64,000 nt of DNA from Escherichia phage vB_EcoM-LTH01. The translations under genes and the position numbers were made by a program. The notes beneath the pieces were generated by a model, which worked only from the letters and a program-made list of their open reading frames with translations, was not told the DNA's origin and ran no database searches. Location of the stretch: the sequence record PP430345; one strand, given 5' to 3'. This document shows, in pieces, positions 3,573-7,318 of this stretch (the first letter of the stretch is position 1; each line of letters opens with the position of its first letter).

Positions 3573-3753
3573 TGATCTTAGTTCACATGCGGTAATGGGA
3601 CCTGGTGGTGCACTGATCGGGATCGCAATCACAAAAGGTATTGCAAATGAAATTATCATGGAGTTTCAAAAGAAAGGTCGAACGGGTTACTATGCAACCC
3701 CTGTAGAAAGTTGGATGTTAGATTACTTTAAAGACGATACCGAGGAGGCTTAA
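3565..3753 (+). CDS. small Gly-rich membrane protein
   Basis: GPGGALIGIAITKGIA hydrophobic helix; overlaps neighbours by a few nt. Confidence 0.4.
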   Translation: MSNDLSSHAVMGPGGALIGIAITKGIANEIIMEFQKKGRTGYYATPVESWMLDYFKDDTEEA

Positions 3754-4340
3754 TGGAATACATTAGTTGGTTGTTTATCTTATCTGCGTGGGTTATCTTT
3801 GCTATCTGGTTAGCCCCTGTGATCATCGCTTTCCGTCGTAATCACAAGAACAAGGTTGTAATTTTAGCTTTGTCATTCTTTACTTCAATGATCCCTTACC
3901 CGCTTGCATTGTTTGCTTGTTGGATAGTTCTGTTGGCTTGGTCATTGTATAAAGTTTCAGTGGTCAATGATGGCTCAAAGTCTGCATATTTAGATTCTAA
4001 GTATCTTGAGTATGCAAAAGGACCGCAAGGTTTACCTGGTCCAATGGGTCCCCGTGGAGAGTCTGCTTATGAAACATACCTGAGAATTCTTCGTAAAGAA
4101 GATCCTAGCGCTATCCCACTAAATGAGAAGGATTGGCTGGATAGTTTAAAAGGGTTGGATGGTGACAAAGGTGATCGAGGGCCATCTGCATACGATCTGT
4201 ATTGCTTATCTGTATGGTCCAAAGGTGATGGTAAAGTACCTCTGTCTTTAGATGAGTGGCTAGAATCTCTCCGTGGTAAAGATGCAGACGAATTACCTTT
4301 ATCTAAAAAAGGTGTCGTTAGTCCACCAAAACGTCCTTGA
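3753..4340 (+). CDS. membrane protein with short collagen-like Gly-X-Y motifs
   Basis: Two N-terminal TM helices, then GPQGLPGPMGPRGESAYETYL and DGDKGDRGPSAYDLY motifs resembling modules of the collagen-like structural protein. Confidence 0.5.
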   Translation: MEYISWLFILSAWVIFAIWLAPVIIAFRRNHKNKVVILALSFFTSMIPYPLALFACWIVLLAWSLYKVSVVNDGSKSAYLDSKYLEYAKGPQGLPGPMGPRGESAYETYLRILRKEDPSAIPLNEKDWLDSLKGLDGDKGDRGPSAYDLYCLSVWSKGDGKVPLSLDEWLESLRGKDADELPLSKKGVVSPPKRP

Positions 4341-4858: not shown

Positions 4859-6034
4859 ATGTCTGAAGTTAAAGTTATCAATGCTGTATACGATGCTGTT
4901 TCCGATACCACAGTAAACATTGCAGCAGGTACGATTGAACGTATCCTCATTAAACGTATTAATGAAGATGGTAGTCCACGCGTTACCACCTTTAAAGATA
5001 AGAATACAGGTCAGCAAAAAAGCATTAACAATACCCACCGCTATGCAGTTCTTCTGAAAGAAGGTGAAGACCAGGCTTGGATTTCTTTTGGTGAAGGTGA
5101 AGTTAAAAACCTGAAGTATGAGAATCAGTTCCAGATTAAAAATCCTGAAGGTGGTTACACTGATCTTAAAGAAGGTATGAAAATTCGCTTACCTGTTGTT
5201 ATCAAGACCTACACCAAACAAGATGGTAGTCAGGGTTCTTCTACGGAAGGTAAGAAAGCACGTATCAAGATTACTGACGCATCCGGTGCTCGTGAGCCTC
5301 GTCAGCAACAGCAGCAATCAAGTGGTTCCCAACAGCAGCAAAAGCCGTCTGGTGGTGCAGCTAAGAAGATTTATGGTGATATCACATCTATCGAAGGCAA
5401 TAAGGTAGTTGTTAAGCTGGAAGACGGCACAGAAGTTACTGTAAACCTCACTGATGAACAGACGGGTCAGATTACAGAAGGTGGTCGTATTGCAGGTGTT
5501 CGTTCAGATGATGGTACGGTTACAAGCTTTAAAGCTTACGGTCCAAAAGGTGCAAATACTGGAACAGGATCACGTTCAGGTAAAGGTAAAGACGATCTGC
5601 CTATTCGTTTAGGTAATGCACTGTCTATCACAGATGCGATGTTCCCGAATGAAACGATCGCAAATCAGGGTATTGTTGTAGAGCAAGTTCTTGCAGCGAT
5701 GGACTCCATTAAAGCAAAACTTCGCGAAGAGTTTAAATCTATGGATGATTATTCTTTTGGTGCTCGTTTAGGCCAGTGTGGTATTCTTTCTGCCCGTTGG
5801 GGAAGTAATAACATTGAAACGTTTATTGCTAAAACAGAAGAGAATTTCCGATTTATCTGTCAGTTGGAAGATAAGATCCGTAACGGGGCTTCAACCCCTA
5901 AGCAAGAAGAAAAGAAATCTGAGCCGGAACCGCAGTTAACTCCGTCAGCAGAAGATTCACCTACACCTGATATCGAAGGCCATGTGAATATGTCTGTAGA
6001 TGATATGGATTTTGACGACGATATTCCGTTTTGA
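4859..6034 (+). CDS. ssDNA-binding-like protein with E. coli SSB-type acidic C-terminal tip
   Basis: Strong RBS AAAGGAGA; C-terminus MSVDDMDFDDDIPF matches the host SSB tip; internal Q/G/S-rich linker (REPRQQQQQSSGSQQQQKPSGG); N-terminal fold not assignable by eye. Confidence 0.5.
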   Translation: MSEVKVINAVYDAVSDTTVNIAAGTIERILIKRINEDGSPRVTTFKDKNTGQQKSINNTHRYAVLLKEGEDQAWISFGEGEVKNLKYENQFQIKNPEGGYTDLKEGMKIRLPVVIKTYTKQDGSQGSSTEGKKARIKITDASGAREPRQQQQQSSGSQQQQKPSGGAAKKIYGDITSIEGNKVVVKLEDGTEVTVNLTDEQTGQITEGGRIAGVRSDDGTVTSFKAYGPKGANTGTGSRSGKGKDDLPIRLGNALSITDAMFPNETIANQGIVVEQVLAAMDSIKAKLREEFKSMDDYSFGARLGQCGILSARWGSNNIETFIAKTEENFRFICQLEDKIRNGASTPKQEEKKSEPEPQLTPSAEDSPTPDIEGHVNMSVDDMDFDDDIPF

Positions 6035-6054: not shown

Positions 6055-6084
6055 TAAAGGCGCTCATTTGAGCGCCTTTTCTTT
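6055..6084. terminator. bidirectional rho-independent terminator between convergent genes
   Basis: Hairpin AGGCGCTC-ATTT-GAGCGCCT flanked by A-run on one side and T-run on the other. Confidence 0.6.
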
Positions 6085-7318
6085 ATGCTGGAATAACTAT
6101 ACCTTCCAAGTTAAACTTCTGAGCTATCGTATTAGAGGCCGTAAAGTCAGCAGGGTACATAGCCCCTGTGTAACCTCTCCCTGTCCAGTAAAGATTACCA
6201 TTGCCACTAACAATTACTTTAAAAGTGTCAGCCAATGAGCCAGTCATATGGAGAATGCCGCCATCATCTATAATATCTTGATGTATGCTTTCAAAAGATG
6301 TTGCGTTGGTGGTTATAGGAAGATCTCTAAATAAGGAGTATGTGTATCCACCTTGTCCACCTGTCGATTGATAAACTCCATTAACCCTGTCAGAGATGAA
6401 TACTTGCAGTGCTGCCCTAGTGCTCACACTTGCGTTTGTATAACTGATCTGGTTAGTTAGGTAAACTTCAACTCCAGCAGGAATGCTTGCCATAGGTGCT
6501 AAATTAGGACCGAGGACGTTGGTTGAGTTTATCCCTGCTCTTGCTGCCGATCCAACTGCATCCCATGACCCATCTTCCCTCTGTGCAACAATAAGTATAA
6601 TAGATTGAGCACCTGAACCGCCAGCCGTGTTAGCCACTTGACCACGAGCACATTTTGCCCTAATATATCTTACAGAAGGGTCCCCAATAGTTGTCCAAGT
6701 TGATAATATTGTTCCGGCAGAAGTACCTGCTACTTGATCTACACCATTGTCGCCTCGGTATTTTAAAGTCCCATCAACCTCGACACGAATAGCATTATAG
6801 TTTGCAAAATACAGATATTTTGTTTTTTCACCCCAAGCTATTTGGGGTCCGTCTGGAAGAAGTCTATAAACAGTGCCGTCAGGTTGGATCGCATATGATC
6901 TAGCTATTTGTATTGCGGAAGATAAGATATTTACGCCGTCAACAATGTATGCAGATTCAGGCAAGACGTTCCAACTGTTTTGGAGAGTTGTGTCAACAGC
7001 GGGGAAGATTACGGCAGAGATATATTCATAGTGGTTATTATTTTTCTTAACCCATACACCGCCGTACAGTGTACTGTCTGTGCCTGCCTCATAAACTTCT
7101 TCGACACCCGTGTTAGTGAGTGTCCATCCAGAAGTTGCATTATTTGTGGTCCCTGTTTTACCAAGCCCGTTTAAATAATTAGATCCGGTTACATACAGAT
7201 GCCCATTAGTAAGCAAAATAAAAATATTTCCTGTACTGGTGCTTACGGCATATTTGATTGTAACGCCTACAGGCAGCGGAACACCGCCGCCGAAGTTAAT
7301 AATTGGAAAAGGGATCAT
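6083..7318 (-). CDS. putative tail fiber / receptor-binding protein
   Basis: Last gene of tail module, Gly/Thr/Asn-rich; AGGAGG RBS; family not assignable by eye. Confidence 0.45.
   Translation of the reverse strand: MIPFPIINFGGGVPLPVGVTIKYAVSTSTGNIFILLTNGHLYVTGSNYLNGLGKTGTTNNATSGWTLTNTGVEEVYEAGTDSTLYGGVWVKKNNNHYEYISAVIFPAVDTTLQNSWNVLPESAYIVDGVNILSSAIQIARSYAIQPDGTVYRLLPDGPQIAWGEKTKYLYFANYNAIRVEVDGTLKYRGDNGVDQVAGTSAGTILSTWTTIGDPSVRYIRAKCARGQVANTAGGSGAQSIILIVAQREDGSWDAVGSAARAGINSTNVLGPNLAPMASIPAGVEVYLTNQISYTNASVSTRAALQVFISDRVNGVYQSTGGQGGYTYSLFRDLPITTNATSFESIHQDIIDDGGILHMTGSLADTFKVIVSGNGNLYWTGRGYTGAMYPADFTASNTIAQKFNLEGIVIPA

Follow-up and report, generated by a model that had tools for sequence, protein, structure and literature searches.

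In the 64,000-nucleotide stretch of Escherichia phage vB_EcoM-LTH01 analysed here (record PP430345; hereafter the window), the gene at positions 4859–6034 is likely to encode the phage's own binding protein for single-stranded DNA (SSB), a divergent and non-canonical one, whose conserved host-type C-terminal tip would serve as a protein-recruitment handle. The acidic tip of Escherichia coli SSB is the docking site for exonuclease I, a known partner of the SSB tip, and for PriA, RecQ, chi (a subunit of DNA polymerase III, Pol III) and others. In the mechanism that we propose, two domains resembling the oligonucleotide/oligosaccharide-binding (OB) fold would bind single-stranded DNA (ssDNA), a four-helix domain would probably join subunits, and a flexible acidic tail would expose DFDDDIPF as its free C-terminal end. 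After coating of phage ssDNA, the tip would become a docking handle that brings SSB-binding proteins to phage replication and recombination intermediates; candidate partners are exonuclease I, PriA, RecQ, Pol III chi and others, and perhaps the family A polymerase of the phage.

The open reading frame (ORF) begins with ATG and encodes 391 residues followed by a stop codon; its translation ends ...GHVNMSVDDMDFDDDIPF*. The start codon is well supported, because a ribosome-binding site precedes it and the N-terminus MSEVKV... is common to the homologues.

4859–6034, + strand: complete coding sequence of an SSB-like protein of PHROG 4477 (ORF translation, PHROG match, identity to phage UPEC06).
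4846–4852, + strand: ribosome-binding site AAAGGAG, 6 bases 5' of the ATG, read from the sequence.

The phage is an rV5-like member of the Vequintavirinae. Over this gene it shares 99.7% nucleotide identity with Escherichia phage UPEC06 (QUL77299) and 94–95% identity with four other E. coli phages, and all five matching records annotate the product as 'hypothetical protein'. The genome of UPEC06 is about 143 kb, and the window corresponds approximately to its 95.4–30.9 kb region in reverse complement. The gene is the last of a rightward early/replication block, which is opened by the DNA polymerase gene about 7 kb upstream.

We modelled the protein with AlphaFold2 from a 60-sequence alignment, which gave three folded units with disordered linkers between them. 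The segments are listed below, with conservation expressed as the mean majority-residue fraction and with disorder read from the predicted local distance difference test (pLDDT).

4859–5296, + strand: domain 1, residues ~1–146, an all-beta decorated OB fold (AlphaFold2), basic (computed isoelectric point 9.0).
5297–5359, + strand: Q/S-rich disordered linker, residues 147–167 (pLDDT <50 at residues 149–166; weak conservation, 0.44).
5360–5542, + strand: domain 2, residues 168–228, a compact five-stranded barrel in the classic OB order b1-b2-b3-helix-b4-b5 (AlphaFold2).
5543–5590, + strand: G/S/K-rich disordered linker, residues 229–244 (pLDDT <50 at residues 232–242).
5591–5884, + strand: four-helix domain, residues 245–342, a candidate oligomerisation domain (pLDDT 89–96; helices 247–261, 267–291, 297–310 and 319–341).
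5885–6004, + strand: disordered acidic tail, residues 343–382, isoelectric point ~4 (low pLDDT; least conserved, 0.38).
6005–6031, + strand: tip MDFDDDIPF, residues 383–391 (translation; alignment to E. coli SSB in PDB 1eqq; family conservation 0.89).

The first-pass annotation, made from the letters alone, had held that the N-terminal part does not obviously resemble the SSB OB fold and had proposed a structure prediction as a check. This is true of the sequence and wrong for the fold: the prediction returned an OB fold for domain 1, which we presume to be the main ssDNA-binding domain. The protein therefore has, at the fold level, the OB-fold nucleic-acid-binding domain of a bacterial-type SSB, and it also has a disordered linker and an acidic DDDIPF tip with a free carboxyl end, DFDDDIPF being followed directly by the stop codon. 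Structural fold matches include the OB domain of the exonuclease VII large subunit, RPA subunits, PriB, RecO, Stn1/Ten1, the SSB of phage Enc34 and T7 gp2.5, as well as the SSBs of Coxiella, E. coli, B. subtilis, Helicobacter, mycobacteria, Plasmodium and mitochondria. With the full-length model, the OB, SSB and RPA matches cover about 64 residues at a root-mean-square deviation of about 2 Å; since these lengths and deviations differ from those of the domain 1 search, the matches presumably come from domain 2. In a Foldseek search against viral models, members of the family headed the list, followed by many proteins annotated as viral SSBs (E = 5e-4 to 1e-2). Across the family, both OB-like domains show conservation (mean 0.65–0.66) and contain many invariant residues.

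The Q/G/S-rich stretch noted in the first pass is indeed present (REPRQQQQQSSGSQQQQKPSGG, residues 145–166, most of it covered by the linker at 147–167). It is not an SSB-type linker in front of the tip, since it joins two folded domains; the segment that corresponds to the SSB linker is the disordered acidic tail at residues 343–382, which on the model would be the functional equivalent of the intrinsically disordered linker of SSB. In this tail, pLDDT is below 50 at residues 345–368 and about 46–58 from there to the C-terminus.

E. coli SSB ends ...NEPPMDFDDDIPF in the 1eqq alignment, and its last nine residues are those of the window protein; translation and alignment thus bear out the identity claimed in the first pass. 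Among the ORFs of the 64-kb window, such a tip ends only this one. A census covered 117 family proteins. The tip is terminal in 98, with the exact form DFDDDIPF in 57 of these 98; 15 others have about 15 further residues after it, and the remaining four are fragments, so that the tip is present in 113 of the 117. It is kept in relatives down to about 25% identity. With the highest conservation of any segment in the family (0.89), against the lowest (0.38) for the preceding 40 residues, the tip is not a chance feature, and the suggestion that it is under selection gains support from conservation across the whole family.

The other explanation offered for the identity, recent acquisition, did not hold up. 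Distant relatives bear the tip, and at the DNA level the window reads ATGGATTTTGACGACGATATTCCGTTTTGA where the chromosomal ssb gene reads ATGGACTTTGATGATGACATTCCGTTCTGA, five of the nine codons being different, all synonymously; as the chromosomal reference we used a 48-nucleotide query ending in ATGGACTTTGATGATGACATTCCGTTCTGA, which matched 3196 E. coli records at ≥99% identity. When the last 180 nucleotides of the gene were compared with E. coli genomes as a check for gene-fragment capture, the best E. coli matches spanned just the final 30–41 nucleotides, in plasmid ssb genes. Recent capture of a host ssb fragment was rejected on the basis of this short plasmid match and the differing chromosomal codons, and the tip is ancestral to the family rather than recently captured.

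The replication genes of the phage point in the same direction as the domain architecture. In T7, a replication set of this type relies on a dedicated SSB whose acidic tail terminates in Phe. The polymerase of this phage belongs to family A (PF00476, 45.7 bits against a cutoff of 34.3), its primase/helicase is gp4-like (PHROG 239, E = 2e-74), and the window protein has an acidic C-terminal tail with a terminal aromatic residue. No second SSB was found in the whole phage by tblastn with E. coli SSB, T4 gp32 and T7 gp2.5, and none is named in the annotation of the phage record. With a hidden Markov model built from three canonical SSB OB domains, this ORF ranked first of 964 ORFs of at least 60 residues, at a non-significant E value of 0.16. 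The first pass had left a choice between a divergent phage SSB and a decoy; the conserved OB-like domains and the absence of another detected SSB favour the former and make a pure decoy less likely.

Bas52_0087 (QXV84166.1) of Escherichia phage RudolfGeigy (Vequintavirus) was predicted in an April 2026 preprint to be an SSB-like protein with two OB folds and a C-terminal tip (bioRxiv 10.64898/2026.04.29.721553). According to the same preprint, it is required to trigger the reverse-transcriptase defence DRT10 (UG17), a system that produces repetitive ssDNA and is held in check by exonuclease I (SbcB); the DRT10-escape mutations of Bas52, D252V and Y351C, fall in Bas52_0087, and the protein expressed alone is neither toxic nor sufficient for DRT10 triggering. 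The window protein is collinear with Bas52_0087 over residues 18–391 (26% identity, pairwise BLASTP E = 3e-21). It shows full-length collinear homology to the PHROG 4477 / Bas52_0087-type SSB-like proteins and has, as they do, two OB-like domains, a helical domain, a disordered tail and an FDDDIPF tip, and it joins this recently described type. Of the two escape positions, both in the helical domain, D252 corresponds in the alignment to the family-invariant D245 of the window protein, and Y351 to E337. Since Bas52_0087 is a collinear homologue, the core idea of our finding is already on record for this family; beyond the preprint, a literature search returned nothing further on these SSB-like proteins.

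The helical domain contains the invariant residues G252, G301 and G305, the last two forming a GxxxG motif (G301-x3-G305), and no relatives of it were found by profile search of PDB sequences and Pfam. It occurs in the family in two clearly different sequence versions. That of the window protein is the rarer one, held in common with Aeromonas phage proteins and without a match to the helical part of PHROG 4477. Because these distinct versions are joined to similar N-terminal domains (for example, family member P0011 combines a window-like N-terminus with the other version), the comparison indicates swapping of the helical domain within the family.

Identity of the tip to the host consensus is the basis for expecting host partners. 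The tip may instead act inside the phage machinery, in the T7 manner, with the SSB-like protein and the primase/helicase both docking on the family A polymerase; the likeness to the host tip would then reflect shared ancestry or convergence, not host hijacking. We hold this account to be possible, without favouring it. In its support, the polymerase is of the appropriate family, and the primase/helicases end in acidic tails closed by Pro-Phe: ...DDWDDDAPF in the helicase half of UPEC06 (QUL77335), ...FEDDETPF in Bas52 (Bas52_0075) and ...PDDDTPF in Klebsiella phage KpS8, where the 15-residue extension described below follows. For T7, the C-terminal tails of gp4 and gp2.5 have been treated as sharing one polymerase site, gp2.5 being modelled on the gp4 tail peptide DTDF of PDB 6P7E (PMC12339929), and titles of papers from the Richardson laboratory report the terminal Phe of gp2.5 as essential. 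Because the phage primase/helicase has a similar tail, we treat a T7-style contact with the phage polymerase as a reading equally live as host recruitment. However, the tip of the SSB-like protein keeps the exact host consensus in 57 of the 98 tip-ended proteins, whereas the helicase tails drift (DAPF, ETPF, DTPF); the difference suggests that binding pockets of the host impose an additional constraint on the SSB tip. The two accounts are not exclusive; they overlap and differ in the partner only.

Two observations outside the window concern these tails. The primase/helicase of UPEC06 (MW250786, 105478–108276; locus L004, 5478–8276, − strand) is apparently split by an HNH endonuclease gene (PF13392). 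The 173-residue protein QUL77176 (MW250786, 12702–13223; locus L003, − strand; PHROG 12009, function unassigned) ends ...KFIVDEDIPF and is the third protein of this phage with a tip-like C-terminus; it has no preceding disordered acidic tail.

That the protein is a decoy with no replicative SSB role, its tip soaking up or displacing host SSB partners such as exonuclease I and RecQ so that phage DNA ends are protected or host repair is shut down, we consider unlikely. The identity of the tip to that of the host would suit a decoy, as would the finding that SbcB overexpression weakens DRT10 defence (bioRxiv 10.64898/2026.04.29.721553). However, a pure decoy would have no need of two conserved OB-like domains, no other SSB is detectable in the phage, and host viability is unaffected by Bas52_0087 alone (same preprint), which argues against strong titration of essential SSB partners.

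It is very improbable that the protein is a recombination mediator or strand-annealing protein (a RecO-like or gp2.5-like annealase) and not a general SSB: RecO likewise combines an OB fold with a helical domain, and a short relative in an Aeromonas phage adjoins a gp2.5-like protein (PHROG 112, E = 9e-7) that is a separate SSB candidate there, but RecO binds the SSB tip and carries none, domain 1 compared with the Aeromonas gp2.5-like family reaches a profile-profile probability of 2%, and no gp2.5-like or other SSB gene was detected in the window phage.

The short relative, of 240 residues, is encoded in Aeromonas phage phiA047 (locus L007, 2122–3435), one gene downstream of the DNA polymerase gene. 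It has one beta domain and the same helical domain and ends ...ELDWDDSIPF; the adjoining gp2.5-like protein ends ...KPEETE, with no terminal aromatic residue, and the two may work as a pair. A VKNxKYE motif common to domain 1 and this Aeromonas phage neighbour gene gave rise to the idea that domain 1 is a fused gp2.5-like protein. That idea was rejected, given the 2% hhalign probability and a silent PHROG scan; no gp2.5-like similarity (PHROG 112) was found in a scan of domain 1 at E values up to 10 or by tblastn with T7 gp2.5.

Several points weigh against the protein being the phage's own SSB with a host-type docking tip. Binding of ssDNA, which like oligomerisation and the identity of the tip partners we infer here, is inferred for every member of the family, and a remote SSB too divergent for the searches used may be encoded elsewhere in the phage. 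There is also no sequence link to canonical SSBs. The window protein does not match PF00436 (bacterial SSB) even at E values up to 1 and has no Pfam match above cutoff, and the family profile matches the SSBs of the PDB at the tip only. It matches PHROG 4477 ('unknown function'; E = 1e-80, residues 4–391). By tblastn, relatives are present in 233 phage records, mostly of rV5-like phages of Escherichia, Klebsiella, Salmonella, Cronobacter, Pectobacterium and related hosts, the match in Aeromonas phages being confined to the C-terminal part; a word-indexed search gave 95 homologues. An exhaustive search of 1.84 billion representative proteins with the profile of the N-terminal domain returned just 32 clusters, 29 of them from this family (sharing the N-terminal domain) and three with unrelated multi-stretch matches. 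The family is therefore narrow and phage-only, with no sequence bridge to canonical SSBs.

The last of these points comes from relatives in which the tip is not terminal. Fifteen family members, together with rV5 ORF214 and PVP-SE1 gp038, continue after the tip with about 15 residues of the form AP(I/V)GLQYxxHAIxx(L/I). Since host partners recognise the terminal carboxylate, which such an extension would bury, a free host-type tip may not be essential. The window protein lacks the extension; the same 15 residues follow the tip of canonical SSBs of lambdoid and Vibrio phages and of some primase/helicases. The loci concerned are these.

Locus L005, 4179–4816: rV5.
Locus L011, 1552–2077: mEp554.
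Locus L006, 4183–4230: PVP-SE1.
Locus L009, 1528–1575: HK75.
Locus L010, 2519–2566: KpS8.

Compared with Bas52, rV5 has a 638-bp insertion that starts right after the ...IPF codon. Besides the extension, this insertion brings in an endonuclease VII-like gene, which is read in a different frame and has its ATG at nucleotide 20 of the extension. The same arrangement of extension and endonuclease is found in mEp554, in a canonical ssb gene. Since the start codon of the endonuclease sits inside the extension in both, the arrangement suggests that a mobile endonuclease inserted at the tip-coding DNA. No endonuclease gene is annotated or recognisable next to the extension in PVP-SE1, HK75, KpS8 and two metagenomic loci. 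The extension may be a scar left by insertion or may serve as a functional cap for the tip. More speculatively, an acidic run followed by x-Pro-Phe on the SSB-like protein and the primase/helicase could be a docking code into the host SSB-partner network or the phage polymerase, capped by the 15-residue extension in some phages, possibly with a homing endonuclease family targeting the tip-coding DNA; we regard this proposal as doubtful. A literature search on the extension ('DIPFAP') or on a homing endonuclease aimed at tip-coding DNA found nothing.

The surroundings of the gene contain the following features.

6056–6079, either strand: bidirectional intrinsic terminator separating this gene from the convergent tail-fibre block (10-bp G+C-rich stem, T runs on both strands).
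6083–7318, − strand: convergent neighbour of 411 residues, PHROG 15692, at the end of the tail-fibre block.
3753–4340, + strand: ORF of 195 residues, hydrophobic in its N-terminal region and containing collagen-like Gly-X-Y runs (GPQGLPGPMGPRGES, GLDGDKGDRGPS).

Because of its location at the end of the tail-fibre block, the 411-residue neighbour may be a receptor-binding or fibre-associated protein; in three metagenomic loci (L012–L014), the equivalent neighbour genes have RCC1 / WD40_RLD beta-propeller Pfam matches. The 195-residue ORF has weak PHROG matches to tail-fibre and superinfection-immunity families, despite its location in the early block. No conserved upstream partner gene was found, the ORFs upstream of the window gene and of the Bas52 gene being unrelated.

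In nearly all of some 230 phage genomes the gene (PHROG 4477) is labelled 'hypothetical'; assignment as an SSB provides it with a likely function and would account for the SSB that was otherwise missing from the rV5-like phages, of which several serve in therapy and biocontrol work. The family also matters for anti-phage defence, since DRT10 is triggered by a homologue, and the window protein carries a naturally occurring variant of the domain that bears the DRT10-escape mutations. It should be noted that a phage SSB with a host docking tip is a well-established idea, and that the value of the present result lies in better annotation and testable hypotheses, with no new principle.

Of the closest known systems, Bas52_0087 has the same succession of an OB domain, a Q-rich linker, a second OB-like domain, a helical domain, an acidic tail and ...FDDDIPF, and its gene likewise lies downstream of those for the primase/helicase and the polymerase, while the helical domain differs (LPIRLGNAL... 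/ FGARLGQCG in the window protein, GVETGH... / VGASVGNAV in Bas52_0087).

With E. coli SSB (PF00436), the window protein shares an OB-fold module, a disordered linker and the nine-residue tip. Unlike it, the window protein has no PF00436 match, is 391 rather than 178 residues long, and carries in each chain two OB-like domains together with a four-helix domain, which is absent from SSB; it probably oligomerises through this helical domain and not through the OB core. Canonical phage SSBs such as HK75 gp31 and mEp554_23 also end like the host protein (...PPMDFDDDIPF), some with the same 15-residue extension, but they are of the ordinary PF00436 type and close to E. coli SSB in sequence, which the window protein is not. 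With T7 gp2.5 it shares an acidic, Phe-ending tail alongside a family A polymerase and a gp4-type primase/helicase with a similar tail, whereas the two proteins have no sequence similarity, gp2.5 ends ...DGDF and not DDDIPF, and it consists of one OB fold with no helical domain.
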